Assembly: GCA_030704615.1 (NCBI GenBank) | Contig: CM060734.1 | Coordinates: forward strand, 124,001 to 188,000 | DNA: 64,000 nucleotides | DNA from: Takakia lepidozioides | Lineage: Eukaryota > Plantae > Bryophyta | Direction: 5' to 3' | Shown: piece by piece, positions 11,831-57,790 of the stretch | Layout of the letters: every line of letters begins with the position of its first letter | Position numbering within the stretch: the first letter of the stretch is position 1 | Position numbers and translations under genes: made by a program | The notes under the pieces: model-generated | What the model saw: only the letters and a program-made list of their open reading frames with translations | What the model was told of the DNA's origin: nothing | Databases searched by the model: none

Positions 11831-11891
11831 GTGGAAAGGGGGATTAGAGACAAGTTTACAACAGGTGTGGTTGTGAGTTTTCATCACGGAG

Positions 11892-12380: not shown

Positions 12381-12539
12381 ACACCCTCGGTTATCAACGA
12401 CACGTCCGTCAGTCAGCGTTAGATCATGTCAGACCTGGCGCTGACGGGACCTCCGTCACGTCAGGTTCGGGGAATATTTAGGTAAAAATAATACCAGGTA
12501 AAATACTGCCACTTAAGCAGCCACGTCGCCCACATGGTG

Positions 12540-14140
12540 GCGGTGGCAAATACATTTTGAAAATTAACAAAATGAACACGACCGCCAATTCGTTTTGCTT
12601 TTCAAAATTAAAAAAAAATAGCGACCGCCGTATTGGCGGTCGCTTCAATTTTTATTTATTTTAAAGCAAGATTGACGGTCGCCTTATTTTTCGAAATAGA
12701 AAAAAAAATAGCGACCGCCATATTGGCAGTCGCTTCAAATGTTTTTTTTTTTAAAGCAAGATTGGCAGTCGCCTTATTTTTCGAATTAAAAAAACAAATA
12801 GCGACCGATATGCTGGCGGTCACTTCAATTTATTGTCTTAATAAAACAAGATTGGCGGTCGCACGATGACAAATACATTTTTGAAAATTAACAAAATGAA
12901 CGCGACCGCCAATTATGGCGGTCACTTTGTTTTTCGAAATTAAAAAATAAATAGCGACCGCCGTATTGGCGGTCGCTTCAATTTTTTTTTTTAAAGCAAG
13001 ATTGGCAGTCACACTGGCAGTCGCTTTATTTTTCGAAATAGAAAAAGAAATAGCGACCGCCATATTGGCGGTCGCTTCAAATGTTTTTTTTTTAAAAGCA
13101 AGATTGACGGTCGCCCTATTTTTCGAATTAAAAAAATAAATTGCGACCGATATGCTGGCGGTCGCTTCAATTTATTGTCTTAAAAAAACAAGATTGGCGG
13201 TCGTATTGGCGGTCGCACGATGACAAATACATTTTTGAAAATTAACAAAATGAACGCGACCGCCAATTATGGCGGTCACTTTGTTTTTCAAAATTAAAAA
13301 ATAAATAGCGACCGCCGTATTGGCGGTCGCTTCAAATTTTTTTTTTTAAGCAAGATTGGCAGTCGCACTGGCGGTCGCTTTATTTTTCGAAATAGAAAAA
13401 GAAATAGGGACCGCCATATTGGCGGTCGCTTCAAATGTTTTTAAAAAAAAAGCAAGATTGACGGTCGCCCTATTTTTGGAATCTAAAAAATAAATAGCGA
13501 CCGTTATGCTGGCGGTTGCTTCAATTTTTATTTTTATTTTTTAAAATCAATTTATTGTTTAAAAAAAACAAGATTGCGGTCGTATTGGCGGTCGCCTAAT
13601 TTAAAAAAGAAAACAAGCGACTGCCGTATTGGCGGTCGCACGGTGGCAAATACATTTTTGAAAATTAACAAAATGAACGCGACCGCCAATTATGGCGGTC
13701 GCACGGTGGCAAATACATTTTTGAAAATTAACAAAATGAACGCGACCGCCAATTATGGCGGTCGCTTTGCTTTTCGAAATTAAAAAAGAAATAGCGACCG
13801 CCGTATACGGCGGTCGCTTCAATTGTTTTTTTTTAAAAGCAAGATTGGCGGTCGCACTGGCGGTCGCTTTATTTTTCGAAATAGAAAAACAATAGCGACC
13901 GCCATATTGGCGGTCGCTTCAAATTTGTTTTTAATAAAAGCAAGATTGGCAGTCGCACTGGCGGTCGTTTTATTTTCGAATTTAAAAAAAAAAATAGCGA
14001 CCGCTATCTTGGCGGTTGCTTAAATTTAAAAATATATGACCGCAATATTGTACAAAATGAAAGGAAATAAAATCGATCGCAGTAGTGGCGATCGCTTGCT
14101 TTTCATTTTAAAAAAAATACGGACCGTAGTATTAGCGGTT
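12540..14140. repeat. Subterminal array of gcgaccgcc-N(5-6)-ggcggtcgc palindromes with AT-rich spacers (mirror at ~20430-21680 has fewer units)
   Basis: Dozens of copies are directly visible. Confidence 0.9.
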
Positions 14141-14438
14141 GCTTAATTTCAAAATTACAACAAATATGGTTGTACAGCTTTTTTTGGGTGGGCGCTATTG
14201 GTTCGTCATTTATTCATTTCACTTTCGTCCGCACCTTTTGCCGTTGTGGCTTCCACCAAAACCACTTCAGCAGATTGTGTATAAACTCAACACTACAACC
14301 CATATTAACCCACTTGGGTTGCTGACAAGTGTAGAAGTGTTGGGCTATCGCATTGCACTCTACATTCACAACACGTTCATTTATAGGTGACTGTTTTTTG
14401 TTGCTTGCAACGTTAGGTCCCAGGGGAATGGATATTGG

Positions 14439-17372: not shown

Positions 17373-17758
17373 TTATAATCTTCTTCGTCCCGCCGTCGAA
17401 GCAGTAAAATGAATTGAAGCAAAACAGCTGTATATTGGCGGTCGCTTATTTATTTTAAATGTTTGAAAATGAAGCGACCGCCTATGCTCGCGGTCGCTTA
17501 TTTTTTTTAATATTTTTTTATAATGAAGCGTGTGCCGATGTTGGCGGTCGCTTATTTTTTTGAATTCTTATAAAATGAAGCGACTGCCTATGTTGGCGGT
17601 CGCTTATTTTTCAATTTAAAAAAAAAATGAAGCGACCGCCTATGTTGGAGGTCGCTTATTTATTTAATTTTTAAAAAAATGAAGCGACCTCAGCTGGATC
17701 GGTTTTGGCATTGTGGTGGAGCTGGTCGTATCGGTGAGGTATGATCCCGTCCCGTCGA

Positions 17759-20134
17759 CTATACAATGGGTTCGACACCATCGTTTGTATGAACAGGGTT
17801 GTGTACGTCGATCGGTCCTGGCAGTACATCACCCCTAAGTTCCATTGGGGCATTACCGGTGGCTTCAGCGTGTAGTGGGGGGCGAGGGTCGACCCCAACT
17901 TCATTTTGAGGACCATGTTTTGGGGATGACACAATTGCAGCTTCACCTTCATCTGCGATATGCACTTCTTCAAGAAGGTCATCAAAGGTCGGCTGGATAT
18001 AAACATCATCCTCTGTGAATATAAACGGGTCATACGCATTTTCGGGAGCATCATCAGATCCATCTTCACTATCGGAGGCAGATGATTCCCTCTGAGGCTC
18101 AGTATCATCACTCATCGAATCAGCCTCAGAAGCAGAGTCTTCGGAATGCAAATTCCTCTCATACCATGCTGCAGCATCATCCGCTGCCCTCTCGCGTAGC
18201 AGTCGGCAATTGGTATACACATACACCAATTTGTCAGCCCTCGCGGGATTCAATCTGTTGCGAATCTTGTTGTGAACAAATGAGTAACTGCTCCAATTGC
18301 GTTCGCATAATGAGGCAGAGCACACTTGAGCAAGAATACGCTTCGCAATGGGAGCCAATGTTCTTGCTACAGCTCCAATCAGATCCCACCATTCATGTGG
18401 CAGCATATTGAGCTCTTTTGGATCCGGCATGTCCTCAAAGGGGTCGCGGCGATCTGAGAAGCATTGGTACTCGGATATAGTTCTCTCTGCATGGTTCGGC
18501 GGAGCTAGTCGCATGAGCACTCGCACGAGGCCGGCCTTGGCATCAGCGTCGTCTTGGAGCATGGTATTGTCGAGCAAGAATGGATTGAGCAAAGCCCCCG
18601 CATAATGCAAGTCCGTTCGAACCATCGAACGACGGTCGTAAAATGCATCCTCAGCACTGTTCGCAAGTTCAGATTCCAAGGAGAAGGGAGGATGCCTCAA
18701 GGATTGGACGTGCTTATCAAGATTTTGCATTAGTAACCATGCCTTGCCCATTACTGGTTGCTTTCCATCAAACTCCCGCAAGACGATTAACACCGGCTCA
18801 ACCATATAAACAAAGTTTTCACATTTCTTCAAGAAATCATCGTTGCGAATGCTATTTCGAACTTTTCGACTTTTGCCCAATGACTTGGCTTTTATGGAGT
18901 CCCACAATGTCCATGTGTACGCATCCCATTGAGGATCGATGATGGTGTGCTCCAGACTGCTTTTCACCGTCACCAACCGATCCACCATCAAGAAGTTAGT
19001 GGCAAAACGAGTTTCGTCTGGATTGCGGAGGCTGTATTTGGGTTCGTGCCTCCTATATATTGCCAAAGGGATGTGGTGTGTGCGGATGAACGACACAATA
19101 GTCTTCGCTCGCTTGACAAGTTGTTTCACCCACTGTTTTTTCCCCCAATCTTCCAAAATGAGGTTAAGGATATGAGCAGCACAACCTTGATAGTACATAT
19201 GAGGATAACGTGCCAACAACATGTCTGCAGTATTTCTCATGTTAGCGGCATTGTCTATGCATATTTGCACGATTCTATCACTTCCGACCTGTTCGATGAA
19301 ATCCGTCAATAGTTGGCATTGATAACGTCCATTTTTCTTCTCGCCGCTAGTGTCGACCGATCCCAAGAATTGTTCCCCAGCTGGACATACGAGCATGACA
19401 TTGAACAACGGTCTGTTTGTGACAGAACTCCAACCATCGGCACATATAGTGCTTCCATATTTTCTGATACACTCGCCCGTCCTATCGTTGACCTTTTGGG
19501 TAAGCTCGGTCATGGCGTCTTCTAGCAATCCTGTGCGGAGATTGTGATAAGTCGGAGGCACGTACGTGGATCTGCACTCCGAGGTTGCTCTAACAGCAGA
19601 AACATATGCCGGAAGCCTTGCCACATTAAATGATATGTTGACCTCGAAGAAAAACTGCGCCCATTTTTTATCCAACTATTTTTTCGCAGACAAGTTAAGA
19701 CCTTCTTGCATGGATTGCTGCCGTAATCCTCTACTCCGTTGAAGTGTAGGGGTACAAAGAGGTGTTGAAGCAGGTGTTGCTCCGGCACAACCCACTTGTC
19801 CAAGGACACCCGAAGCCTCACAAGAGTCACCCTGGGTACTAATCGGGGCATCCTGACGGGAAGATAGAGTGTTCTGCTCAGAGGTCATGTCCAGATCCAA
19901 AGACATTGGAATATTGCCTCCACACTGGGCAAAGTGGATTTTTACCCGCATAGATGTTTTGGGGCATAAACCCACCCCAACGCTCTTCACACCTTTATAG
20001 CCGTGGTGAGCGAGCAACCGATCCTTACGATAAGAAAGCTTTAATCCACATAGGTTGCACTCAACACTACCAGTGGCACTTACAGTGTTTGGGATTGCCG
20101 TATACCAAGGGCTCCATTCCTCCCTCATCTTCAC
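17759..20134 (-). pseudogene. Inverted duplicate of the hAT transposase
   Basis: The 638-aa ORF differs from the left copy at 21 residues by eye. The BED finger lies in ORF 19676-20134. It shares TAG stops with the left copy at 19676-19678 and 17759-17761. Confidence 0.92.
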
Positions 20135-21829
20135 CCAATATCCATTCCCCTGGGACCTAACGTTGCAAGCAACAAAAAACAGTCACCTATAAATGAACGT
20201 GTTGTGAATGTAGAGTGCAATGCGATAGCCCAACACTTCTACACTTGTCAGCAAACCAAGTGGGTTGATGTGGGTTGTAGTGTTGAGTTTATACACAATC
20301 TGCTGAAGTGGTTTTGGTGGAAGCCACAACGGCAAAAGGTGCGGACGAAAGTGAAATGAATAAATGACGAACCAATAGCGCCCACCCAAAAAAAGCTGTA
20401 CAACCATATTTGTTGTAATTTTGAAATTAAGCAACCGCTAATACTACGGTCCGTATTTTTTTTTAAATGAAAAGCAAGCGATCGCCATTACTGCGATCGA
20501 TTTTATTTCCTTTCATTTTGTACAATATTGCGGTCATATATTTTTAAATTTAAGCAACCGCCAAGATAGCGGTCGCTATTTTTTTTTTAATTCGAAAAAT
20601 AAAACGACCGCCAGTGCGACTGCCAATCTTGCTTTTATTAAAAACAAATTTGAAGCGACCGCCAATATGGCGGTCGCTATTTTTTTTCTATTTCGAAAAA
20701 TAAAGCGACCGCCAGTGCGACCGCCAATCTTGCTTTAAAAAAAAAACAATTGAAGCGACCGCCAATACGGCGGTCGCTATTTCTTTTTTAATTTCGAAAA
20801 GCAAAGCGACCGCCATAATTGGCGGTCGCGTTCATTTTGTTAATTTTCAAAAATGTATTTGCCACCGTGCGACCGCCAATACGGCAGTCGCTTGTTTTCT
20901 TTTTTAAATTAGGCGACCGCCAATACGACCGCAATCTTGTTTTTTTTAAACAATAAATTGATTTTAAAAAATAAAAATAAAAATTGAAGCAACCGCCAGC
21001 ATAACGGTCGCTATTTATTTTTTAGATTCCAAAAATAGGGCAACCGTCAATCTTGCTTTTAAAAAAAAAACATTTGAAGCGACCGCCAATATGGCGGTCG
21101 CTATTTCTTTTTCTATTTCGAAAAATAAAGCGACCGCCAGTGCGACTGCCAATCTTGCTTTTAAAAAAAAAAATTGAAGCGACCGCCAATACGGCGGTCG
21201 CTATTTATTTTTTAATTTCGAAAAACAAAGTGACCGCCATAATTGGCGGTCGCGTTCATTTTGTTAATTTTAAAAAGTGTATTTGTCATCGTGCGACCGC
21301 CAATACGGCAGTCGCTTGTTTTCTTTTTTAAATTAGGATACGACCGCCAATCTTGTTTTTTTAAGACAATAAATTGAAGCGACCGCCAGCATATCGGTCG
21401 CTATTTGTTTTTTTAATTCGAAAAATAAGACGACCGCCAATCTCGCTTTTAAAAAAAAAAACATTTGAAGCGACTGCCAATATGGCGGTCGCTATTTCTT
21501 TTTCTATTTCGAAAAATAAGGCGACCGCCAGTGCGACCGCCAATCTTGCTTTAAAATAAATAAAAATTGAAGCAACCGCCAATACGGCGATCGCTATTTT
21601 TTTTTAATTTTGAAAAGCAAAACGAATTGGCGGTCGTGTTCATTTTGTTAATTTTCAAAATGTATTTGCCACCGCCACCATGTGGGCGACGTGGCTGCTT
21701 AAGTGGCAGTATTTTACCTGGTATTATTTTTACCAAAATATTCCCCGAACCTGACGTGACGGAGGTCCCGTCAGCACCAGGTTTGACGTGACCTAACGCT
21801 GACTGACGGACGTGTCGTTGATAACCGAG

Positions 21830-24800
21830 GGTGTAGCTGCCGGTATCACCACTGCCCTTGTGCTTCTAGAGATGGAGACATAGTCAGGTGACCAACACAC
21901 CCGTCATTCCTCAATCTCCACCTCATGTCCCCGCCTAAACTCATGGTAGTCATCCATGGGCCCCTCAAGGTGCTGAAACAACCCCTTCCACGCCATAAAA
22001 GGCGTAAGCAGTTGTGGATTGCGCATCTGCTGCAAATCACACCAACTATCAAACTCATGTATGAAATCATCAAGCTCAATGGTGCCCACAGCTCCAGAGT
22101 ACCGACGTGGCCCCTTGGTAGCTCCATACATTTCCTCCATCGTATCCCACAACAATGGCACGGAAATGGCTTGCACCCTCGGCGAGAATCCTCCTAACTC
22201 TGAGTCTGAACCTTCCTCAGAAGACACTAAAGGTGAAGGTGGCCTAAACCACACACCTCGTCTTGTATACCCACTAGTATCGCTGGTGCTTGTACCGGCA
22301 CTCTCCTTAGCAACTGGTGACACCTCCGTGATGAAAACTCACAACCACACCTGTTGTAAACTTGTCTCTAATCCCCCTTTCCACAAGGTAACCGGGTAGA
22401 AAACCTGTTGCGGCTTATGGTTTAGACTACTAGGTTCGTAATATAAACTTGTACCTGCATCCACCGCAAGCACTCCTACGGTCTGCTGATCATCAACCCA
22501 GCCTCACCATAAGAGAAACAATGATGGTCTGATTGGTCATCACCCCAGCCTCACCACCGACAGCACGCTCTAGGATTGACCGGTGATCAAATCCAGACCA
22601 ACCTCCTATGAAAACAAGCGTCCACACAAAGCTAACATGGTGCACAGTCAAGCATGCAGGTGTCGAGGGGATCCAAACACAAGAAAATCAAGACAACAAC
22701 TCCCCCACACCAAAAACACTCCACAGTGTCGCTCCTGCAATGATACTCCAGCCCAAACCCGGACTGACTCTTGCCTCCACCTACGGAAAGGTTTTGGCCT
22801 ACAGAGAAGGTGAAAGACTACAAGGAAGAAAGACTAAAGCAATTCCTAATCCCAGCATGCCCTCATCCCACTACCCTATCTCCACACTCTCTTGCTTGAA
22901 CAATAGACAAGACTACCTTTCAAGGGTCTCTCAAATAACTCTCCAGGAGCCCTCAAGAATATGTCTCTCAAACAATCTCACTAAGGCTCCCAATCCTTGT
23001 ACAATGGGACTCCAAAACAGTACACCAAGGCCCCAAGAGCCTGCCAAAACTTAGCCCTCGAGGACCCCAAATAGTCCATCACACAAGTCGCCAAAGACTC
23101 CTCAAGCTCGCCAAGTATTGGCCTCCAAGGACCCCAAATAGTCCTCCAAAGAACTCCAAATGGTCCTCCAAGGACCCCAAACAGTCCTCCAAGCACTCCC
23201 AATGGTCTTCCAAATAGTCCTCCAAGGACTCCCAATGGTCCTCCAAACAGTCCTCCAAGGACTCCCAATGGTCCTCCAAGGACCCCAAACAGACCTCCAA
23301 GGACTCTTCCTATGTCACCATGTTCCCAATGCATTCCCAATGGGTTCCCAATAGGTTCCCAATAAGTTCCCTAAGTTCCCTAAGAGTATTCTTGAGAATA
23401 TGCCATAGTATTCCCCCAGTATTCCCCTGGGTCTATACGTATTTTTTTTTTGTATTCCCCTTTATATTCTCCTTAGGAATAGCCATTTCCCCCTCATAGA
23501 GTAGTCCATTTCCCCCCAGGGTTTAGCCATTTCCCCCTAGGCTTTAGCCACTTCCCCCTCTATTTTCTTGAGGTTTAGCCTTACCAAGCTAGGGTTTGTG
23601 CTCCTTGGGGCTCTATGCTTAATCCCCTCAAGCATCCATGAATTCTATGGGGTGCCAAGGCAAATTCCTTTGATCTTCTTCACCTTAAGCTACTCAAGTT
23701 TGTCTCCAACTCAACTAGCAATGCATTGGCCACACAACAAGCTCAATTTCTCATTGGAACTCAAAATCAAGCTTATACCTCCTTTGGCAAGCCACCAAGC
23801 CTTGTCTCATCTCAAGCCTTGGTCATTCAAGCTCCCTTCATTTGCTAGCTCAAGAGCCACTCCTCTCAAGCTTGAAATTGCAAAGCTCAAGCCAAAAGCA
23901 TGCTCCACACATGCATCACCTCATACACAAGGGAATCAACTTTCTCCCTTTATCTTCTAGCTCTCCTCAAGCTTTAAACTGGAAGCCACACTTGGGAAGC
24001 ATGCTCCCACATAAGCATCACTTGCTTGATCAACCATCCACCACAAAACTTAAGCCAAAAGGGAATGAATACATGAGCTTCACCTTCCCCTTCCTTGTCT
24101 TGTCACATGCTAATGTATGGTTGAAGTTGCTATGCATGCCTTGAGCCACAATCTCTTTTCTTCATGAAGACCACCTCCAATGATCTCCCACATGTGCTCC
24201 AAGCTCTTCAATGCTCTAGGCTTGGTTTCACATCATCATGGATAGAATTTTCACCCATATGTTTCCCTTCAAACCTCTTGAGCTTCCTAATGCTTTCCAA
24301 GTGCTTGCCCTTGTTGTCTTCAAGCCCAAGCCTATGTAGCTCCTTGGCTTATCTTCCACAACTCCACAATTGAGCTTGGTTAACCCTAGATTGATTGTGA
24401 AATGAGCACTAACAATCATTTAGTTGCTCTCCTCAAGCCATGGCACACACCATTGACTCCATAATGCATAGAAATGATTCTCAAACCCTAGAATCCGTGC
24501 TTCCACACACACAAGACTTCCCTCTTGCAATCCTTGCAAATCCTGTGGCAACAAGCTCCTTCTTGAGCTCTCCAACACCTTGGTGTAATACCACAAGTAC
24601 TTTTCCTTGCAACCTTTGTGATCTACAAAAGCTCCATCTTTGAGCTCTCCACCTCCTTAGGGCAAAGCAATATCTCTCAAAGCCCTAACACCACAAGGAT
24701 TTTCCTTTACAATATATGCAACACCTTGCAACACAAGAGCTATCTTCCCAAGCTCTTCAACACACAAGTGCTAAACTAACCCTTACACTCCGCACTCACA

Positions 24801-24927
24801 AGCATAAGGTCATCTTCTTGTAGTGATAATAAAAGTGAACACAATGGAAACACTCCACTCATGAAATGGTGAAATCATAGCCAAAATGCAATTTACAAAT
24901 TTTTCCAATCCTCCTTCCGTTCTTCTA
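21830..24927 (-). mobile_element. Inverted duplicate of the Gypsy LTR + gag fragment
   Basis: Reverse complement of 9267-12385; gag ORF at 21904-22323. Confidence 0.85.
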
Positions 24928-37922: not shown

Positions 37923-39910
37923 TCACACATCCAAAAAGTGGTTCAATCTTATAAGCGCAAAGCGCTGGGTCTCAGTAAAATTTTCCATGATGTGGGCAAC
38001 CCGAAGACAGAACGTGAGAAATGATTTATTGTCTTGGGTTCTCTCACCAGAGGGATGCTCTGCATTTGTGGCTTTCCCCTTCTGCTCCGCCAGAGACTTG
38101 CTGTGTGCCACCTTCTTCGCCCTAGCAGCGAGAGCGTCAAGGAAGCTCTCATTGACGCATTGGATGATGGTTGGAGGTTCTAGCTTTGGCCTGTGCGTAA
38201 ACGTCACCGCCGAATACCGCCGTGTAGGCTCGCCCTCAAATGCCAACTTCTTGGCAGAGCCAGTCCCACTTCGAACTGACTTGGGAACCCGGACGACCGG
38301 TGACTGGGTAGGAGCAACAGCAGTCGCAGGACCTTGAACAAAGTCGTCGTCCGAGTCACTCTCTTGGGTCCCCTCCTGCACCTCCTTCGATGCCCCGATG
38401 GTTTTCTTCTTTTTGGGTGTTACTGCACTCACCTGTTTCCTTGTCCTTTTCCTTTGGCCTTTACTCTTCTCATGCAATTTCTCCTGAATTCCTGCCTGAG
38501 CAAGCTCTGCCGCTTTCCTGGAGTTTGTAAGCGCTTTTGCCTCTTTTGCACCCAACGGAGGCAGCGGAGCCCGGTTTCGTCGGAATTCAGCATCCAGCTT
38601 CAATTGAAACTCGGATAGGTCGAGCGAGCCGGGCGGAAGGTCCACATACCAAGGGCAATCACGCAAATGTTCCAGATGCCACTCCTTCACAATATCGTCA
38701 GTGTACATGGAGTCAGCCCCAGGGTTCCTCCATGCCAGGAAGAATGGTGGCTTGAAAGACAGATGACCTTTCTCCAAAAGGGAGAACTTGCAGTACCTGC
38801 ATTCATGAAAAACACAATGACGTCCCTGAAATGCATATTCGGCACCATTTTTCCCAGGTTGGGGCGGATGTGAGTGGGCCTAGAAATGGAAAAATGGCGC
38901 CGAATTTCGGTTTTCGGTGACTGCCACCCTAGGGACTTAGCCATCTTGGGAGCCCTGAACTGGAAATTCGGCGCCATTTTTCCCGGTTTGGCCCGAAGAT
39001 GGCTAAGTCCCTGAACGGCAATAGGGTCTAGAACTGGAAAATGGCGCCGAATTTCCAGTTCAGGGCCAGCCACCCTAGGGACTTAGCCCGAAAATGGCTA
39101 AGTCCCTGAACGGCAATAGGGCCTAGAACTGGAAAATGGCGCCGAATTTCCAGTTCGGGGCCAGCCACCCTAGGGACTTAGCCCGAAAATGGCCAAGTCC
39201 CTGAACGGCAATAGGGCCTAGAACTGGAAAATGGCGCCGAATTTCCAGTTCGGGGCCAGCCACCCTAGGGACTTAGCCCGAAAATGGCCAAGTCCCTGAA
39301 CGGCAATAGGGCCTAGAACTGGAAAATGGCGCCGAATTTCCAGTTCGGGGCCAGCCACCCTAGGGACTTAGCCCGAAAATGGCTAAGTCCCTGAACCGCA
39401 ATAGGGCCTGGAACTGGAAAATGGCGCCGAATTTCCAGTTCGGGGCCAGCCAGTCTAGGGACTTAGCCCGAAAATGGCCAAGTCCTGAACGGCAATAGGG
39501 CCTAGAACTGGAAAATGGCGCCGAATTTCCAGTTCGGGGCCAGCCAGTCTAGGGACTTAGCCATTTTCGGAGCCCTGACTGGAAATTCGGCGCCATTTTC
39601 CCTAACACCACATGAGGCTTCTAACATCCTGAAATGCAAGGACTTGAAAGAAAGGCAGCGCATATGTACCTGTACAGAAGGCGCATTGCTGCTTTGTCCG
39701 CGTTTGGCTGGTCGGTGAACTCGTGGCTCCGGTGAGCATCTGCTATCTCCCGAAAGAATAGGTTGGTTTTGTAGAGCAGAAAGTGGCGGTACAGAGCCTA
39801 AAGACACCCCTGGTTTTGAAGCCATGATGGAATTCTTCACGGCTGTGAGCACGAATTGCAAGAGCACTCGGGGGGGGGGGGGGGGGGGGTTTGAGGTGGA
39901 GAGAGCTTGC
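37923..39910 (-). pseudogene. 3' exons of an uncharacterised accessory gene of the Mutator-like element (intron ~38797-39669)
   Basis: Donor ag|GTACAT at 39669 and acceptor tgcAG| at 38797 join ...KAAMRLLYR to YCKFSLLEKGHLSFKPPFF in the frame of the 284-aa ORF. Confidence 0.55.
38840..39600. repeat. 95-bp tandem array (~6 copies) containing aaaatggcgccgaatttcc, located in the predicted intron
   Basis: gcccgaaaatgg at 39086, 39181, 39276, 39371 and 39466. Confidence 0.95.
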
Positions 39911-40186
39911 GACATGAGTCGGACTCGGGAGCTCAGCCACTGATGCTGGGCAGAGCTGCTATTGCAGGCTTGGGCCTCACGGAGGCGGATATGGAGCCTT
40001 GTCCTTTCCAGATACAGACGTCTCTGGGAGGATCGGAGCAGGCTCGGGGCATGACACGGCATGAGTTGGCTATCAGACTACGGCCGGATCACCCTACAGA
40101 TGGCTCAGTGATGCGAGCCAAGGCCATTGTGACAGACGCAGTCTCATACGATGTCCTGGTTGGTGGGGCAGTGTTGTACCCCATGG

Positions 40187-40860
40187 GCAGCCGGGCATGG
40201 CAATGGATTGCGAGACTCGAGGTCGGGTCTGTTTTGGGAGATGGTGCGGGTTTTGCGCCACTTGCAGCTTCATCAAGCTGTATCTCCAGCATACATCTTG
40301 GAGAATGTGCCACTGATGGGCGATTCTCGGGCCAGGGTGATGGCCAGTGTGCATCAAGTCCGGTCGTGGCTTGGGTCAGCAGTGTTGCTAGATGCAGCTA
40401 CAGTGGGTCACGGGCTCATCGTCCACGGCTATGGTGGACTAACATGATGCCACCCGCACTGCTCAAGCGTGCATTTGATGGGGTGCAAAGGCCAGCACAT
40501 CTCACAGTGGATAACATTCTGGACACAGGGAGGCAGTCTCAACGTGTGAGACACGATGACCGTTCGCCTTTGGCAGTGGTCAACAAGGTGGGTCAACCAC
40601 GAGCAGCATTACCTACACTGCTCAGCTTCCCAGGATCGCATGCTTTCCGGGATAGTGGACCTGGCCTCCTGTGGGATGCTCAGTTGCAGCAGTTAGTGGA
40701 GCCTAATGCTGACGAGCGTGAGAGCGGCAATGGGTTTTACCACTGGTACCACGGCGGTGTCGTCTCTTTCTGAGGCATCACGTCGTCAAGTGTTGGGGCA
40801 AGCAATGGATCTCAATTGCTTGACCTGGATTATCAGCTTGGCTCTAGCTGAGCAACGCAG
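40187..40860 (+). pseudogene. DNMT3-like C5-cytosine methyltransferase domain within pol (motifs V/VI-X; motifs I-IV missing)
   Basis: AGHGNGLRDSRSGLFWEM; PAYILENV (40301-40309); LDAA.VGSRAHRPRLWWTN; ERE(R)AMGFTTGTT; SRRQVLGQAMDL. The motifs are spread over frameshifts. Confidence 0.88.
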
Positions 40861-43800
40861 AGTGCGGAATACACTTCCCTCATGGTCTCTCTGCCTACCG
40901 AGACGGTACAGGCAGTGAGTGGGGGCGAGCATATGAGGACCACGGGGTGATGCATCCATGGCACACGTGGGAGGTGCTCGAGGTTCAGAGGGAGTTGGCA
41001 GCCAAGGCGGCTGTGATGGATGAGGTTGGGGATTCTTCTCGAGTTGAGGAGGTCCTCAAGGATGAGATGATGGGGCAGGATGATGCCTTGTCATTGACTG
41101 AGCAGGTAGGGAGTACTGCTCAAGAGGTTGCAGCATAGCAACCACGGGACGCGTCCTCTACCTCTAAGCCCACTGGACTTAAGGTTGTAGTTACGGAGGA
41201 CAATGGGAGCCTGACATTGGACCCATTGTCACCGGAGGAGAGAGACGACGTATACGGCGGTTCCTGAGGGCTTACAGGAATTGCTTTGCCTTCAGTTTGA
41301 AGGACTTGGGCAACTGAAGGGTCAAGAGATCCGTATTGAGTTGGCCACTGACACGCCAATCTTTCGGAGACCCTATAGATACAGTGACATGGAGAGGTCT
41401 TTGATTCAGATGAGGACTCAAGATCTCTGGGAGGCAGGTTTGGTGGAGCTCTCTGGTGGAGAGTATGCTTCAGCCACAGTGATGCCAGCCAAGAAGGATG
41501 TCTATGGCAATTGGACGGAGAGACGTATGTGCGGTGATTACCGGCCTGTAAATCGTCAGACCAAGTCCGATAAGTATGCCATGCCAACACCAAGAGGAGA
41601 TCTTTGATGCCATCGGGCATGCTAAGGCCTTTAGCACTTTGGATTTACGATCCGGATATCATCAGTTGCCATCAAGGAGGCGGACAAGCAGAAGACGGCA
41701 TTCTGGGGGATCAATGAGCACGGCAAGGATTGCCTTATATCAGTGGCGGTTCTTACCATTTGGGCTTAAGAATGCTCCTGCAGAGTTTCAGAGAGTCATG
41801 GATAGGATTCTAGCAGGGGTGGACTTTGCTCGGTGCTACATAGATGACATCATCATCTTTAGTGTTACGATGGAGGAGCATGAGAGACACCTTCAGGTGG
41901 TATTGGAGCGCTTGAGAGCGCACGGATTGAAGTTGCATCCGGGGAAGTGCAAGTTTTTCCACAACCAGATTGAGTATCTGGGTCACATGATATATCCTGG
42001 AGGATTGGGGTACAGCAGACTAAGGTAGAGGCCATTGCACAAATTCCACGCCCCACGGATGTGAGCCGAGTTCGAGCTTTCATGGGTTGGCAAACTATTA
42101 TAGACGGTTTGTCAAGGGATTTAGTACCATTGCAAAGGCTCTAACCAAGCTGACCAAGGTGGACCAGGAGTGGCAGTGGGAAGATGAGCAGGAACGAGCT
42201 TTTCAAGAGCTCAAGACGAGGTTGACCTCGGCGCCTATCTTGAGACGACCTATCAGGGGGCGTCCCTTTCAGCTGCATACGGATTTGAGCATGCTGGGGC
42301 TTGGAGCGGTGCTCACACAGGTGGATGATGAGGGAAGAGAGTTCGTAGTGGCTTACGCTAGCCGCTCGAACAACGCTGCAGAGGCTAAGTACAGCTCATA
42401 TGAGGGAGAGTGCTTAGCTGCAGTGTGGGCCGTGGCACACTTCAGGTGCTATCTATACGGCAATCTTTTCACCCTTGTCACGGATCACCAGCCACTCAAG
42501 TGGTTGATGAGTCAGACAAGCTTACGGGGAAGCTTGCACGGTGGGCACTTATACTCCAGGAGTATGACTTTCAGTTGTGCATCGACCGGTTTTGGTCAAT
42601 CGGGGATGCGGATGGATTGAGTCGCAATCCATGCATGAGCCAGCAGGATGACACTGGAGCTCGGTGCATGGTGAGACGGACGAGGAGATGGTGCCGGGAT
42701 GGCACGCATCTGCATTTTTGTGTATCTTGGCATCGGGAGGTCAGATTGGACCTACAACAGGATGACTGTAGACGGAGTGTCTGAGGACCCTGAGGCTAGT
42801 GATGAGCTAGTGGTGCCAGAGATATACATGAGGATTTGGCTGTGTTGGACTACCTCCGCACGGGAGACACGGCAGCCATTGTGACTGCCAGGGAGAGGAT
42901 CGGATCCTGCAACGAGCCAAGAGGTTCAAGTGGGAGGGGATACACCTACTTCGAGTGTGGGAGGATGGTCGGGTGAGGATTGTGCCTCACCCCACACAGC
43001 GTGCACGTTTAGTGCGGCATGCCCATGAGGAGTTGGGGCATTTTGAGTGCGACGCACTCACAGTTTACTGCAGGGGCAGTATTGGTGCGTGGTATGCATA
43101 CAGAGGTGCAACAGTTTGTGTGGCTAGGTGCATGGTGTGTGACAGGGTGCGTGCTTCATTCAACGCCCCTACACCACAGTTGCATCCTTTACCAATCATG
43201 GGATGGGCTACAGGTGGAGTCTTGACTTCGCAGGACCGTTGCCACTGACTATGCGCCACCACAGATATGTGTGGTGATGGTGGAGCACTGTTCCATTGCC
43301 TGACAAGGCTAGTGAGGGGCTGCGTATGCATTCTTGGATCGTGTGCTTAGCCGATTTGGTGCTCCAGCTGAGGTACTCACGGACCAAGGGAGAGAGTTCT
43401 TGGGGGAGTTTCAGGCTTTGTGTGATAAAGCCTTGATAGACCACCGCACCACTTCTCGGGATCATCCTGAGGCCGATGGCTTAGCAGAGAGAGTTGTTCA
43501 GACGGTGAAAGGAGGTGTGCGCAAGTATGGCTTGCAAAGGGACACCTAGGAGATTGGGATCTTCAGGTTCCTTGGTTAGCCATGGGCTACAGGTTCAGCA
43601 AACAAGCATCACTTGCCTCCTTCTCACCATATTTCCTTCTCTTTGGCCGAGAGCCGGATTTGCCTGCAGCCATTCGTAGGGACACTGCTCAAGTCCTTAA
43701 CCTTGACGATCCGGACGTGTGGGTACGTGCATGTGATCAGCGTGCAGAGTTGTTCAAGAAAGTCATGCCCATGGCTTTTGAGAACCTTGCCATTGCACAG

Positions 43801-44095
43801 CACCGTGATACGTTGAGGTATGCCACTATACGTGGTGGAGGATATCGTCCTGGGGTTCGGAGGTTTAGCCCTGGTGACTATGTTTATTTGCAGCAGACTG
43901 CTCCTACGACTCTGGATGTTACTGCAGGGCGTGTTATTCTGAGGGTTCGAGAGGTGTTGCCCTCAGGGGTCCTGATCTTAGAGGGTCGGGATGGCATGAC
44001 TTGGAAAGACCATGTGCGTAATTGTGCGCCATGTCACCTTCCAATGTCGATGGCAGAGTTGACCCAAACTTGGCAGTGGTACCTGCAGGTTTGAG

Positions 44096-44230
44096 GTGCA
44101 TGCTCTGTGGGTCTGCCAAAGGGGCAGCCACCATGCTGGTGTTGATCGATGCTCAAGGGGTTGGCATATGGATGCTGACACCACCTCTTGAGAAGGTTCC
44201 TGACGGAGATTGGTTGTGTCCACACTGCTT
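44096..44230 (+). other. PHD finger at the integrase C-terminus (frameshifted)
   Basis: CMLCGSAKGAATML...LTPPLEKVPDGDWLCPHC. Confidence 0.85.
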
Positions 44231-44496
44231 GGGATAGTGGCAGTGGACATGACTGGAGGCAGCTAACAAGACATGGGAGGCCAAGCTCATAGGAGTCAAT
44301 ACATGAGATCCCAAGCTCAAGTTCACAGGTTGCAAGACGGCGACTAACGATGGGGCAACTCTTGCACCCGGCCTCTGATCTATCGAGTTTGAGTGTAGTA
44401 GGGATAGTGGTGGAGGACTTAGTGAGGCTATGGTCACTATCACATCTTGTGGCTACCTGGACTTAGAGGGACCTAAGCACCAGCTAGGGGGGCGAT

Positions 44497-45182
44497 TGTG
44501 TGGACTAGTGACTGCCATAGTGGCAGAGCGTAGTGGCAGCTAGTGACTGACTAGTTGTAGCCTAGTGTTGGACTAGTGGCTGGACAGTTGGTAGTAGCTA
44601 GTGTGTGGTGTGCACATGTGTTGTGTGGTTTTGGACAGCGATGTAGTTGTGTAGCGATATGTATGCGCACGACAGCTGTCAAGTTATTTTACCACTAGTG
44701 TGAAAACTAGCTAGGAAATAGCTAGCTTTTACATATTGACATTTGGGATTGGCCCAAGTGTCAATCCAGGGGTCAAGGCAGATTTAGGCCCTGGAGTGGT
44801 TATCTTCACGGCAAGCGCGGGAGGCTCATCTTTCTCGAGTTGAGCCTCACCGCGCCTAGCTATGGCGCCGTAGTGTGGATTCCCCATGGCGTGGGGTGCA
44901 CTTGGCTTGACTTGTATTTGAGTGATGAGGTTATATATGCTGAGTTTATGCTTCAGCTTTGTGAGCTCGCATGAGCTTGTGCTTGTATTCTTCCTCTTTA
45001 TCATTGTGTGGACTAGTGACTGCCATAGTGGGCAGCATAGTGGCAGCCTAGTGACTGACTAGTTGTAGCCTAGTGGTTGGACTAGTGGTAGGACTAGTGT
45101 AGACTAGTGTGTGGTGTGCACATGTGTTGTGTGGTTTTGGACAGCGATGTAGTTGTGTAGCGATATGTATGCGCACGACACA
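44497..45182 (+). repeat. LTR sequence whose start is repeated in tandem (44497-45004, then 45005 to the gap)
   Basis: tgtgtggactagtgactgccatagtgg at both 44497 and 45005. Confidence 0.8.
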
Positions 45183-45682: not shown

Positions 45683-48600
45683 GTGCTCATGCGTCAGAAG
45701 CTCCGCGTCCCCTCTTCTTCCAAAGTGCTCTCCAGATTTACTCGTAAACTTTGGGGTCGCGGTCCGATACAATTCCTTCGGGACTCCATGATGCTTTAAG
45801 AATACCGTGGGCGAAGTAAAGTCGCCCTGTCTCCTGCGCAGTTGCCGTCTCCTTGTGGGGATGAAATGGGCCATTTTACTGAACCTATCTACCACCACCA
45901 TGATTGCATCGAATCCTTTTGACAGCGGCATAGCAGTCATGAAATCCATCGAGACGCTTTCCAAGTCCCCTCTGGAATCGGCAAGGGTTGTAACGCCCCG
46001 CGTGCTTTTTATACTCGCTCCGGTTTTGTTGGCATGTGGTGCATGTCTTTACATACTCTCTCCTCTGCCTCCTCCCCTCAGTTTGGGCCAGAAATACTCT
46101 TTCTTCAAGAGTGCCGCAGTGCGCTTGGCTCACCGTGGCCCGCAAGCGGGCTATCATGGCATTCTCTCAGAGACTATCCTGATCCCTCCCTTTGGCACAT
46201 AGAGACGTTTTTGCTTATACCGGAGCAGTCCGTTTTGCAAGTGGAACTGCGATTTAACCCCATTCTCAAGTTCTGCATCACGCACTTTGCCAGCTCATCC
46301 TTCCGGCAAGCCTTCCGGATCTTCCTTTGGAGCGCCGTCTCGCCCTTGTACACCAACAAGAGCTGCTGCTTTCTACTTAAAGCATCGGCCACCACATTGT
46401 CCCGTCCCGGTTTGTACTGGATATCCACGTCGAACACTGCCAAAGTATCTTGCCACCTAAGTTGTTTTGGGGACAACTTGGGCTGCGTGGCAAAATACTT
46501 CAACCGTGACATTGTCCGTGAACACCTTCACTGGGTTGGAACCAACATAGTGGCGCCAGAGTTCAAGGCAATGTTACCACCGCCTTTCATCTCTTTTCGT
46601 GCGTCGGCCACCGTCGCTCCACTTCATTCAGTTTCTTACTTTCGTAAGCACTGGACGTCCATCTTGCATAGTACACACCCCCAATTGCGAATCCGATGCA
46701 TCTGTATGAATCTCAAACGGACGATCGAACTCCGGGATTTTTAAGACTGGAGCTTCCGTCATCCGCTGCTTCAATTCAGCAAAAGGCTTGGCACAAAATG
46801 TGTTCCATACCCAGACTTTTGGATTTACACAGAAGGTCCGACAGCGGCCCCCCCGCGATCTTGGCGAAATTTCTCACATACTTCCGGTAATAGGAGGCGA
46901 GTCCTAGGAAGGATCGCACTCCCGGGACCGAAGTCGGAGGCTCCCAGTCCAAGATCGCCCTCACCTTTCTGTCATCCATTTTGATCCCATCCTGTGTAAT
47001 CACGTGCCCCAAGAACTCCACTTTTGTGACCCCGAATTCGCACTTTGAAGCTTTGGCATACAGCTTCCCTTCTCGCAATTTTTGGAACACCCTTTTGAGT
47101 TGCTCCAGGTGCTCCTCCTTTTTGTTTCGAGTACACCAAGATGTCGTCGATGTACACGATCACAAAGTCATCCAACCACTCCTGGAAAAGGCTGTTCATC
47201 AGCGTGCTAAATGTCGCTGGTGCATTGGTGAGCCCAAAAGGCATCACCAAGAACTCATATGAACCATACCTTGTCCTGCACGCGGTCTTCTCCTCATCTC
47301 CTTCCGCCACCCGAATTTGGTGATAGCCGGAGCGCAAGTCGATCCGGCTGAAATACTTCGCTCCTGCCAACCGATCGAAGAGGTCGTCGATCCTTGGCAA
47401 AGGGTACCGGTTTTTGATAGTCACCTTATTCAGAGCCCTGTAATCGACACACATCACATCCGCAGCGTCCCATCCTTCTTGTCTGCAAATAGCACCGGGG
47501 CTCCGTAAGGTGACTTACTCGGCCGGATGTACCCCTTTGACATTAGATCTTTGAGCTGAGTCTTCAGCTCGACCAACTCTTTGTGGCTCAACCGGTAGGG
47601 CGCCTTGGCAGGCGGTTCCGATCCCGGTATCACCTCAATTTTGTGGTCAACTCCTCTTCGCGGTGGCAAGCCGCTTGGTAAATCCTCCGGCATCACATCC
47701 TGGTATTTCTCCAAAATCCCCTTGATCCAATCTGGGCTCGGCTCCCTCCCCATCGCCTTCTCCTTTCACTTCTCTAATGTAAAGCAAAAACTGGGACTCG
47801 TGTGTCTCCTCCACGGCCCACTCCTTTGCTGATAGAAGGTTTATTCGCCCTCCCACGGATTTGGGCGTTTCCGACACTCGTAAAACCTCGCCACCATTCC
47901 CACATGGCAGCGTGACTACTCTCTTGCGCGGCCATCTATGACCGCTCCGGATTTGCTCAAAAAGGTCATTCCCAAAATGAGATCCACTCCATCGATCTCG
48001 CAGATAGTGAAGTTCTCACGTCCCTCCCAACTCCCCAGTTGAAGAGGAACATCAAACGCCAACCTTGTCGCCAACTGAGGTTCTCCTTTGGCAGAGCGCA
48101 CCTCAATAGAGGCCCCCACGTCACTTGTCGGGAGTCCCAACTTTCGCGCCGCCGCCGGCGTCATGAAGGAGTGCGACGCTCCTGTGTCCACCAACAACGA
48201 CACATTAGTTCCGGATATTATCCCATCCACGAACAATAACTGACTCCCTTTTCGTAAGGCGCCAGTTTCCTGATACAACTCACAAGAAAATTTGCCTACC
48301 TTGCAAGTCCTGGCGACCACCGTTTCCACCAAGCGACTGATGGTATCTTCCGACAGCTCCGTGGTCGCCCGAGTCATGTTCAATTGCCGGGGCTTCGTGC
48401 ACTTCTTGGCCATGTGCCCGGGCTCCCCGCAATTGAAACACACTCCATCAAAGGTCGCCTTCTGTCCGCCATAAGTCGCTCCACCCGCTTTTCCTTTCGA
48501 AGCACCGGGTGCCGCCTTGACGTGTGAAGGACCTCCCTTCGATTTCCACGTGCCATTTTCGCCGCGTGGCCTATCCCACTTCTTTTCCGGTCGGGAGGAG

Positions 48601-49494
48601 TCACCTTCCCGCCGGGTCTTCTTGTGGTCAGCTCCGTACGGCCTTGTCTCTCACCCCTAGGGACATCCGAGAAACATTCAGCTCTCTCAATTGCCTCGTT
48701 CAAAGTCTTGGGTGGCTTCTCCTCCAACTTCCGCCTAGCCCATGGGGCCAGTCCCGCCACAAAGTTGAAGACCATTTCTGGTTCTGCCATGTCCGCGATC
48801 GAGCAACAGCACATTGAAAGCCTGGACATACCCCCGAATGTCATCTGTTTGCTTCAAATTCCTCATCTTGTCCCGGGCAAGCCAGGACGCGTTGAGGGGC
48901 ACAAACTGTCTCTTCATCAATTCCTTGAACTCACTCCAGTTCAAGGTTTCCGGCTTGGGCCTCGGTCGTGAAGGCGTTTCTGCCACCATTGTTGAGTATA
49001 GCCTCTCAAATAGGTGGAGCCACTTCCACCCGATCTTCGTCACTCAACTTGGCCGCCCGGAAGTACTGCTATAGCTCCAGGAGCCAGGTGTTGAGTGCCT
49101 TCCGGTTTCGAACGCCCTCGAAGGTGCCGGGTTCCTTAGGCTTCACCTTAAACTTTGCCTTGGTGGAAGTGGCATTAGCGCCTTCAACACGTCTTTCAAC
49201 GTCCCGCCAAACTGCGCCAACAACCCTTCCCAAAAGGCTGCCGGCATGGGAGGCATCTCTTGGTTTGTCGGAGCTCTCAAAGATTCCTCGGGCTCCGACT
49301 CCTCGGATTCCTCCCGCTCCTGAGCGGCCTCGTTTTCGGAAACATTAATCGCTTCCCTCAAACGGCCGCCTCGGTGACACGTCGCCCCATCGGGCTCACC
49401 GGGATCATCATCTTTTGGGCCGTTCCGCTTTCGTTTCGGCTTGCCCGACCCCATGATGAGGCCAATCCAAGGACGATTGCGTACTGAACTCTAG

Positions 49495-49506
49495 GCTCTG
49501 ATACCA
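49495..49506 (-). promoter_or_regulatory. Primer-binding site for initiator tRNA-Met
   Basis: Minus strand TGGTATCAGAGC, 2 nt inside the LTR end. Confidence 0.92.
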
Positions 49507-51049: not shown

Positions 51050-51760
51050 GCCCGGAATTTCCAACGTAGAGGTAATTCGGAGCGCAGCAGGATGGAAATT
51101 CAGCGCCGAATTTCCATCCTGCAAGGTAGGGCGGCGCGCGAAATTTCCCTCACGCAGGTAATTCGGAAGCGGATGGATGCAAATCCGGCGCCGGATTTCC
51201 ATCCGCGCAGGTAGGGCGGCGCGCCAAATTTCCCTGAAGCAGGTAATTCAGAAGCGGATGGATGGAAATCCGGCGCCGGATTTCCATCCGCGCAGGTAGG
51301 GCGGCGCGCGAAATTTCCCTCAAGCAGGTAATTCGGAGGCGGATGGATGGAAATCCGGCGCCGGATTTCCATCCGCAAGGTTGGGTGGAGAGCGGATGGA
51401 TGGAGATCCGGCGCCGAATTTCCATCCAGCAGGTAAGTGGAGTCCCGGATGGATGGAAATCCGGCGCCGAATTTCCATCCTGCAGGTAAGTGGAGTCCCG
51501 GATGGATGGAAATTCGGCGCCGGATTTCCATCCAGCAGGTAATTCGAATCCCAGATGGATGGAAATCCGGCGCCGAATTACCTGCGTGAGGGAAATTTGG
51601 CGTGCCGCCCTACCTACGCGGATGGAAATCCGGCGCCGAATTTCCATCCAGCAGGTAAGTCGGATCGCTGGCGTATGGATATTCGGCGCCGAATTTCCAT
51701 TCGCCAGGAATTTCGAAACGCGGAATTACCTTCCTGCAGGTAATTCTGAGCGTGTCCGAT
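51050..51760. repeat. Tandem array of ggatggaaat(t/c)cggcgcc(g/a)atttccatcc palindromes
   Basis: About ten palindromic cores separated by gcaggta-containing spacers. Confidence 0.95.
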
Positions 51761-51819
51761 TGATTTTTCGGATTTTTCTTGGAATCCTTCACTGCTAGAG
51801 GCTAATCGGAACAGCCTCG

Positions 51820-53090
51820 GACGGAAATTCGGCGCCGTTTTTCCATTCTGGGAGGTTTTTACGACTTCCTTTGAGGGGGCCCCGATGGAAATTCGGCGCC
51901 GAATTTCCATCCGGGGGATGGTCTCTGTCGGAGAGGTGCCGGCCTCTCCGCCGCTCTGTTGGATATTCGGTGCCGAATTTCCGTCCGGGGGTTGAAATAT
52001 GACGGCCAGGTGCCGGCCTCTCCCCCCTCCCCGACTGCATTGGAACGGCCCCGGATGGAAATTCGGCGCCGTTTTTCCATCTGGGGAGGTTTTTACGACT
52101 TCCTTTGAGGGGGCCTCGATGGAAATTCGGCGCCGAATTTCCATCCGGGGGATGATCTCTGTCGGAGAGGTGCCGGCCTCTCCCTCGTTCTGTTGGATAT
52201 TCGGTGCCGAATTTCCGTCCGGGGGTTGAAATATGACGGCCAGGTGCCGGCCTCTCCCCCCTCCCCGACTGCATTGGAACGGCCCCGGATTGAAATTCGG
52301 CGCCGTTTTTCCATCTGGGGAGGTTTTTATGTCGACCAGTTTTCGGTCTGACCCCCCGACAGGACTTCCTTTGGGGGGGGCCGGATGGAAATTCGGCGCC
52401 GAATCTCCATCCAGGGGATGTTCTCTGTCGCACACGCGCCGGCCTCTGCGCCCGAGGCGACTTCATCCGGGCGTCCCCTGTTGGATATTCGGTGCCGAAT
52501 TTCCGTCCGGGGGTTGAAATGTGACGGCCACGTGCCGGCCTCTCCCCCCTCCCCGACTGCATCCGAACCGCCCCGGATGGAAATTCGGCGCCGTTTTTCC
52601 ATCTGGGGATGTTTTTATGCCGGCCAGTTTTCGGTCTGACCCCCCGACACGACGTCCTTTGGGGGGGCCCGGATGGAAATTCGGCGCCGAATCTGCATCC
52701 AGGGGATGTTCTCTGTCACACACGCGCCGGCCTCTACGCCCGAGGCGACTTCATCCGGGCTTCCCCTGTTGTATATTCGGTGCCAAATTTCCATCCGGGG
52801 GTTGTAATGTGAGGGCCAAATGGCGGCCTTTCCCCCGAGCCGACTGCATCCGAAAGGCCTCGGATGGAAATTCGGCGCCGTTTTTCCATCCGCGTAGGTT
52901 TTATGTCGGCCAGTTTTCGGCCTGACCCCCGACAGGACTTCCTTTGGGGGGATCCGAATGGAAATTCGGCGCTGAATTTCCGTCCGGGGGATGTTCTCTG
53001 TCGGACAGGTGCCGGCATCTCTACCCCAGACGACTTCATCCGTGCGGCCCCTGTTGGATATTGGGTGCCGAATTTCCATTCGGGGGTAGT
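51820..53090. repeat. Higher-order tandem array (units of 234, 234, 288 and 287 bp), each with three GG(C/T)GCC-centred cores
   Basis: ggaaattcggcgccgtttttccat at 51823, 52057, 52291, 52579 and 52866. Confidence 0.95.
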
Positions 53091-53383
53091 AATGTGACGA
53101 CACAACACCGGCTTCTCCCCTTCAGCCGTCATCATCCGGACGGCCCCCCACTTTCTGACTGCATACTGTTGGCAGTTATTGCGCAAAGACCAGGGGCCGC
53201 ATTCCGGAGACAAGGTTCATTAACACTCTGACTGTGGATTTTTGAGATAGTTGGCTCCCTGGTTTTGGATTAGGCTTCGTCGCTCGGACAAATCGGCACC
53301 GCATTCCTTCCCATCGCTGCATCCCCCTTCTACCAGGGAGCTTCCCCGCACGCCATCCTGGCAGTCTTGTGTGCACATCTCCC

Positions 53384-56906: not shown

Positions 56907-57059
56907 TGGGGCAAAGGGAATCCTCCATATGGATCTTTTCAATTGCATTTTGCTGTATCAGACTTTTTTTTGCAGTGTAATGAAATGCACCCCAAAACTC
57001 CTGGAATGAGGCAATATTCCATTCAAACTGAGATCCAACAGAAGCAGTTGTGGGGCCAT

Positions 57060-57790
57060 TTATGGAAAAATGGCGCCGAATTTCTCTTTTTGGGGCCGAA
57101 AACTGGCTAATTCCCAACATGCACTGGTACCTGTGTCTGGGAAAATGGTGTCGAATTTCTCTTTTTTGGGCCGAAAACTGGCTAAGTCCCAACATGCACT
57201 GGTACCGTGTCTGGAAAAATGGCGCCGAATGTCTCTTTTTGGGGCCGAAAACTGGCTAAGTCCCAACATGCACTGGTACCTGTGTCTGGGAAAATGGCGT
57301 CGAATTTCTCTTTTTTGGGCCGAAAACTGGCTAAGTCCCAACATGCACTGGTACCGTGTCTGGAAAAATGGCGCCGAATGTCTCTTTTTGGGGCCGAAAA
57401 CTGGCTAAGTCCCAACATGCACTGGTACCTGTGTCTGGGAAAATGGCGTCGAATTTCTCTTTTTTGGGCCGAAAACTGGCTAAGTCCCAACATGCACTGG
57501 TACCGTGTCTGGAAAAATGGCGCCGAATTTCTCTTTTTGGGCCGAAAACTGGCTAAGTCCCAACATGCACTTTGTACAGTGTCTGGAAAAATGGCGCCGA
57601 ATTTCCCTATTTTGCGCCGAAAACTGGCTAAGTCCGAACATGCACTGGAAAAATGGCGCAGAATTACCTGTCATGAGGGGACCTATAGCCGCGGAATTCG
57701 GCACCATTTTTCGCCAGAGAGACCTATTACCGCGAAATACGTCGCCATTTTTTCAGGTTACGGACCCTATTACCGCGAAATTCGGCGCCA
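57060..57790. repeat. 74/75-bp (149-bp dimer) tandem array with aaaatggcgccgaattt and ggctaagtccc
   Basis: About eight units; both motifs are shared with the 95-bp array at 39 kb. Confidence 0.95.

Follow-up and report, generated by a model that had tools for sequence, protein, structure and literature searches.

The 64,000-nt stretch of the Takakia lepidozioides genome analysed here (the window) contains, on its plus strand, the remains of a Gypsy-type retrotransposon that carries part of a DNMT3-like cytosine methyltransferase. A first-pass annotation, made from the window alone, had placed C5-methyltransferase motifs between the protease and the reverse transcriptase (RT) of this element. 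The named motifs were found at that place, spread across three reading frames: protease DSG at 39922, where the copy begins, ENV (motif VI) at 40301–40309, AHRPRLWWTN (motif VIII) at 40414–40443, ERE and AMGF (motif IX) at 40714–40738, and RRQVLGQAM (motif X) at 40781–40807. Pfam family PF00145 matched 40133–40444 with an E-value of 4.9e-5, above the curated cut-off. The aspartic protease was traced from its DSG active site over 39922–40185 (53% to residues 312–422 of the related protein P0008), with an Asp_protease_2 match that was weak in this copy and stronger in relatives. Upstream of it the element is truncated, and gag and the 5′ repeat are absent. A deletion junction was located at 40185–40190, where about 755 nt (about 250 amino acids) are gone, as indicated by a tblastn jump against P0004, P0008 and P0017 and by a diagonal shift of 755 against the related locus L032. 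Compared with full-length relatives, the deletion removes methyltransferase motifs I–IV including the catalytic cysteine, and the alignment resumes just after the catalytic PCQ.

The frameshifted C-terminal half of the DNMT3-like C5 cytosine methyltransferase (motifs VI, VIII, IX and X), recognized from motifs, Pfam and relatives, follows at 40190–40876. An in-frame stop, TAG CAA CCA, separates the enzyme frame from the RT at 41136–41144. Then come a frameshifted RT at 41204–42075 (RVT_1, 2.2e-29), RNase H at 42075–42660 (RT_RNaseH_2, 4.3e-34; RT_RNaseH, 1.3e-30), a frameshifted DDE integrase with zinc-binding part, core and C-terminal part at 42898–44043 (rve, 8.4e-6; 53–89% to pieces of L032), and at the integrase C-terminus a PHD finger at 44097–44228, recognized by its motif and by the PF00628 matches of relatives, with two frame shifts and a stop at 44235. 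About 20 frame breaks, due to decay or assembly errors, were counted against L032, and the copy abuts an N gap. As a copy with a 5′ truncation and an internal deletion, the window element is a dead member of an abundant Gypsy-type family; it cannot methylate anything because motifs I–IV with the catalytic cysteine are deleted. The proposal that the element encodes its own methyltransferase is thus valid for intact family members and not for this copy.

The methyltransferase is clearly a normal part of a much-repeated family. In three DNA runs, read depth over the methyltransferase bins was like that over the RT/integrase bins; summed depth was about 20,000–23,000 and 15,000–45,000, respectively, for X1, and 0.86–1.18 million and 0.67–1.18 million for X3, read depth not being equal to copy number. 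Contigs of X1 and X5 departed from the window at 40188 and ran on into motif IV, indicating that other copies in the same organism keep the catalytic site. Among 80 related metagenome loci, the enzyme was followed by RT in 51, the others being cut short, interrupted or decayed there. The domain order of the family is gag-protease-methyltransferase-stop-RT-RNase H-integrase-PHD, and relatives include single-frame polyproteins of 2100–4700 amino acids that hold all domains. A one-off insertion of a host gene or an assembly chimera might be suspected from the truncation of the window copy, its many frame breaks and the adjoining gap, but this idea is refuted by the flat depth, the 80 related loci in the same order and the single-frame polyproteins, and we give it practically no credence.

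Fragments of the window matched Sphagnum, Calypogeia and Riccia proteins at 46–72% identity and another protein at 89%. Profile searches added at least 10 gene models of Marchantia polymorpha as well as relatives in M. paleacea, Mesostigma, Haematococcus, Hariotina, Closterium and Klebsormidium nitens (GAQ93235); phmmer with P0006 retrieved 269 clusters at E-values of 1e-30 or below. Physcomitrium, hornworts and vascular plants were not represented among the organism names of the matches listed, most of which carry no such name, and the viral contigs scanned gave no family match. Sorting of 329 proteins gave two architectures, type A, in which the enzyme follows the protease or precedes RT (58 proteins), and type B, in which it lies between RNase H and integrase (123); the remainder were too short for typing (144) or without domain match (4). 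Named members of type A are streptophyte and those of type B chlorophyte, names being attached to a minority of the proteins only. In the RT tree, the window RT joined Sphagnum-like loci with a support of 100 in the approximate likelihood ratio test (SH-aLRT), the root of this tree being weak as the intended locus outgroups mostly fell inside the family and one true outgroup was left.

Several single members deserve mention. The enzymes of P0004, P0228, P0235, P0294 and P0006, with Calypogeia, Marchantia and Sphagnum names, showed very short branches, the moss sequence being placed among those of liverworts; this pattern may reflect a slow rate of change or transfer from one bryophyte to another. 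Type B proteins P0021, P0024 and P0025 carry after the PHD finger an extra conserved C-terminal domain with the pattern DPW..TSPW, presumably reminiscent of an amino-methyltransferase as far as the pattern can be read. Precomputed G-patch and NUDIX matches were noted for P0039. L084 (1–9285), probably a misbinned plant repeat, is an open-framed, circularly assembled family member in a genome bin labelled as cyanobacterium, and P0251 likewise bears a bacterial label.

We collected 206 distinct full-length methyltransferase domains, 148 of them of known architecture type. Within these 148, the motif IV Cys was present in 147 and the ENV Glu in all 148, and the RxR arginines were nearly invariant in full-length domains. 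Motifs I and IV, which the first-pass annotation had proposed to look for in other copies, were found in relatives in an intact order (I-IV-VI-VIII-IX-X), within a domain that is intronless and unrearranged in the polyprotein. Among the metagenome loci, many of which are decayed copies, the Cys was kept in at least 66 of the 74 (from 80) that cover motif IV. The ratio of nonsynonymous to synonymous substitution rates (dN/dS) between window enzyme pieces and loci was 0.08 (13 pairs) and 0.10 (53 pairs), with 0.06–0.08 for RNase H/integrase pieces; these ratios are rough, dS being above 1.7 with saturated pairs dropped, and they rest on 6–53 of the 80 loci per piece and on one for the protease, no usable pair being obtained for the motif VIII piece, RT and linker. 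The catalytic residues are conserved in the family, and the sequence comparison points to purifying selection. A missing PF00145 match, absence of the segment from other copies or its neutral evolution had been named as observations that would speak against the annotation; what we found was a match, the segment in other copies and a rough dN/dS of 0.08–0.10.

The DNMT3-like pattern read from the motifs was borne out by fold and profile. An AlphaFold model of the intact relative P0006 (predicted local distance difference test, pLDDT, 90) gave DNMT3A/B as best Foldseek matches, with an E-value of 1.6e-18 and a template modelling (TM) score of 0.83 on the target. The family profile scored 93 bits with DNMT3A, 65 with DRM, 38 with HhaI and 31 with DNMT2. 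Three phage enzymes scored 75–81 bits with the same profile; in a single-sequence search the best phage enzyme reached 56 bits versus 48 for DNMT3A, and the first atlas matches included two phage clusters of equal score. In a quick enzyme tree of element and phage enzymes, host DNMT3 not being included, all 44 element enzymes grouped together against the three phage enzymes (SH-aLRT 100); type B was recovered as a single clade (99), and the type A enzymes, the K. nitens branch among them, formed a basal polytomy.

The integrase had been described as ending in a PHD finger instead of a chromodomain, and this was confirmed mainly through relatives. The window segment scored only 0.052 for PF00628, and the same segment in two relatives scored 3e-10 and 8e-10; no chromodomain match was obtained in the integrase C-terminal pieces scanned. 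Full C4HC3 in one frame was observed for 12 of the 25 loci that reach the PHD finger. The nearest solved PHD fingers include those of CHD4, KMT2C/D, PHF12, DPF3, PHF21A, KDM5A/B, ATXR5 and UHRF1. Most of these fingers bind the unmodified N-terminus of histone H3, not K4me3. By this analogy, the integrase PHD finger is likely a histone reader. PHD fingers are common among Chlamydomonas transposons, according to the text of PMC8557442.

Many type A proteins end about 80–160 residues beyond motif X. The 51 loci with both enzyme end and RT start are close relatives and do not count as independent cases. In 47 of them, CAA follows a TAG or TAA at the same site; the other four have TAA TAA (one), a glutamate codon (two) or a lost linker (one). 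In 48 of the 51, a stop splits an otherwise same frame of enzyme and RT. For L084, which represents an independent subfamily with an about 50% identical enzyme, two open frames are joined by TAG CAA TCA, and the second frame is without methionine for 116 residues. Both TAG CAA CCA of the window and TAG CAA TCA of L084 match exactly UAG-CAR-YYA, given in PMC3159437 as the tobamovirus read-through motif. The UAG-CAA stop is thus likely to be leaky and read through, as judged from its sequence context. The difference from the tobamovirus type is that the stop would here set the ratio of Gag-protease-methyltransferase to RT-integrase. The assignment of the enzyme to pol is therefore correct in order, as the enzyme precedes RT, but it lies in a gag-protease-methyltransferase frame that is ended by the likely leaky stop. 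Two findings speak against read-through as a general rule. P0219, P0224 and P0265 have one open frame with no stop between enzyme and RT. In most Sphagnum-like loci the stop is followed by CAA-CCC, which deviates from the viral motif at a single position; as an ATG occurs two codons further on, re-initiation is possible there.

The 3′ part of the element is made up of split repeats. A polypurine tract at 44486–44495, kept in relatives, lies directly 5′ of repeat B1 (44495–44674), which ends in CA and is 92% identical to repeat B2 over 183 nt. Repeat A2 (44677–45003), at the position of A2 in L019, L060, L062 and L064, starts with TG and has lost its 5′ partner A1; an X12 contig starts at 44677 with a foreign flank. 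Repeat B2 (45003–45180), defined by repeat comparison, forms the right element end (CA) beside an assembly gap. The palindrome GACAGCTGTC at the B1/A2 junction (44671–44680) is identical in L008, L029 and L084 and decayed in other loci. The whole A..B-A-B layout, about 9.2 kb in length, was found in the four loci L019, L060, L062 and L064. The element ends are TG..CA, and 4-bp target duplications were observed for two of three independent insertions (L060 and the single insertion seen as L062 and L064 duplicated, L019 unclear). No tRNA primer site was seen after repeat A1. Self-priming was considered and rejected, as self-complementary matches were only 8–9 nt in three of five loci and absent in two. 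Ordinary reverse transcription would yield B-A..B-A because the purine tract precedes B; if this product were joined into a circle and then cut at B/A, the observed A..B-A-B would result. Retroviral integrases can cut palindromic circle junctions. By analogy, a circular intermediate might be opened by the integrase of this family at the B/A palindrome, and the A..B-A-B arrangement would then be explained.

The window copy very probably belongs to the KnitGypsy-Dnmt3 lineage, described from K. nitens (PMC5890265). According to the main text of that report, the K. nitens element shares the Gypsy domain set, an intronless DNMT3-related domain and DIRS-like split repeats, and its Ka/Ks is below 0.2. 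K. nitens GAQ93235 (P0139) is a 50%-cluster match of the family and has the order zinc knuckle-protease-methyltransferase, but its enzyme is about 35% identical and forms a separate branch of the basal polytomy. The present family differs in its land-plant host lineage and in the stop between enzyme and RT, the paper describing a single open reading frame; both domains share one frame in P0219, P0224 and P0265 and not in the window. A PHD finger goes unmentioned in the main text of PMC5890265 (Fig. 4c and the main supplement lying outside that check), in which the Klebsormidium element was treated as an acquisition of that lineage. The reader/writer combination proposed in the first-pass annotation is not a new system, as this kind of element has been published. 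The PHD finger is missing from some enzyme-bearing relatives.

Other known elements are more distant. SymbioDIRS-Dnmt3 shares a DNMT3-type domain in a retrotransposon polyprotein and A..B-A-B repeats, but differs in a tyrosine recombinase instead of a DDE integrase, a dinoflagellate host and an unrelated RT, as described in the main text of PMC5890265. EpiLTRs of Cymbomonas and Euglena are likewise long terminal repeat (LTR) elements with a cytosine methyltransferase and a chromatin reader, but carry a DNMT4-related enzyme, an extra adenine methyltransferase and a chromodomain instead of PHD, and were considered distinct from the streptophyte Gypsy-DNMT3 elements by their authors in the portion of the preprint available (bioRxiv 10.64898/2026.05.21.726589). 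The chromoviruses Chlamyvir and Tcn1 (PMC6317226) likewise have a reader domain that terminates the integrase and is presumed to direct insertion; theirs is a chromodomain, with ordinary LTRs, and the accessible text mentions neither PHD nor a methyltransferase. As to classification, DIRS/PAT (tyrosine recombinase, no target duplication) was excluded by the DDE integrase and the 4-bp duplications, chromovirus by the PHD finger and the lack of a chromodomain match, and Troyka (CG..CG ends, 3-bp duplication, animals only, as far as the text of PMC12440569 goes) by the TG..CA ends and 4-bp duplication. In the text of a 2019 opinion (PMC6338049), methylase-encoding transposons were stated to be absent from land plants such as tracheophytes. 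PMC12344493 and the EpiLTR preprint, in their main parts, cite only the 2018 report for streptophytes, though their supplementary trees may hold more members, and the accessible parts of PMC6317226, PMC10952607 and PMC6453930 contain nothing on the present family. No published land-plant or chlorophyte members were found in a search that most subscription journals and several supplements lay beyond; nor did it yield, for such elements, the type B position of the enzyme, a UAG-CAA stop that is conserved and assigns the enzyme to the Gag part, target duplications of 4 bp or a palindromic internal repeat junction.

As to function, we lean, with some reserve, toward the reading that the DNMT3-like enzyme of intact members would methylate the element's own new cDNA. 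Ribosomes would pass the UAG-CAA stop at low frequency, so that the enzyme would be made at Gag-like levels and RT-integrase-PHD via read-through. The enzyme would then enter the particle in larger amounts than RT and integrase, be released by the protease and methylate the cDNA, probably at CG, and the new copy would enter the genome already marked; the PHD finger would likely tether the integrase to nucleosomes via the H3 N-terminus. Production on the Gag side would also give free enzyme in excess, and the enzyme could instead act in trans on the insertion site or host DNA, silencing copies, slowing transposition or adding to the host methylome. The PHD and DNMT3 pair resembles the ADD and DNMT3 pair, which we count for action in trans, but here the PHD finger sits on the integrase side of the stop and not on the enzyme. 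A self-limiting role was raised by de Mendoza et al. in the main text of PMC5890265, in which the K. nitens methylome is nevertheless described as ordinary. Neighbouring transposons of the window show little CpG loss (see below), which also speaks against action in trans; we consider this reading unlikely.

The CpG content of the element was compared with its surroundings. Silent-site CpG observed/expected was 0.28 for the window element versus 0.77 and 0.81 for two neighbouring transposons. At 28 listed transition differences, CpG was missing in the window in two cases and in others in five; the deficit looks family-wide because window-only losses are fewer than losses in others. The CpG depletion is unspecific and gives only a hint. 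As CpG control and outgroup we used an ordinary, frameshifted Gypsy element without methyltransferase at about 45683–49500 on the minus strand.

Symbiodinium retrotransposon DNMT3s methylate CG in yeast, according to the main text of PMC5890265. Against self-methylation of the cDNA stand several observations. In yeast, no methylation was obtained with the Klebsormidium Gypsy enzyme, a result called inconclusive by its authors in the same text. Glutamate takes the place of the motif IV proline (EC for PC) in 61 of the 148 domains, and CpG depletion in L084 is weak (0.59–0.74). Other stretches of the window and the flanks of loci are as CpG-poor or poorer. P0219, P0224 and P0265 keep the enzyme without PHD, so that the two domains are not obligatorily combined. 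Neither a tRNA primer site nor convincing self-priming was found that would account for replication of the element. The yeast result, the frequent PC to EC change and the weak CpG loss of L084 would also fit a domain retained for some purpose besides DNA methylation, for example to methylate or bind element RNA or cDNA ends in the particle. However, the Cys, the ENV Glu and the RxR arginines show hardly any variation, and DNMT3 is a far better match than DNMT2 in both fold and profile; we regard such a role as somewhat less probable than action in trans. Methylation of the element's own cDNA by intact members is the reading that we retain.

Elsewhere in the window, stretches of gag that belong to another subfamily within this lineage and are truncated by a hAT element were detected at 12075–12308 (plus strand) and 22140–21907 (minus strand). 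A leader motif of 20 nt that includes the palindrome ACCGGT, found at 11627–11641 and 22574–22588 exactly as in L084, may be a cis signal. A large inverted duplication (9267–16881 and 17692–24927, arms 98–99% alike) holds two open reading frames of 638 amino acids for a hAT transposase, accompanied by long arrays of subterminal repeats. Tandem arrays with units of 95, 96 and 75 nt and GGCGCC-centred palindromes, at 38893–39580, 51145–53147 and 57051–57696, are likely to be subterminal repeats of DNA transposons.

A wider scenario, which we put forward tentatively as possible but rather doubtful, would be a single ancient lineage from chlorophytes to mosses and liverworts. It would include a one-time capture of DNMT3 and PHD, relocation of the enzyme within the polyprotein, flooding of the particle by read-through, self-methylation of cDNA, DDE integration from a palindrome-opened circle and an LTR/DIRS hybrid life cycle. 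The split repeats in company with a DDE integrase suggest an uncommon mode of integration, which programs that search for LTRs would probably overlook. At least 10 of the gene models annotated in Marchantia are fragments of such elements and might be taken for methyltransferases of the host. As Marchantia is a tractable model with methylation mutants, its family members make directly testable the question of why a transposon carries its usual silencer.

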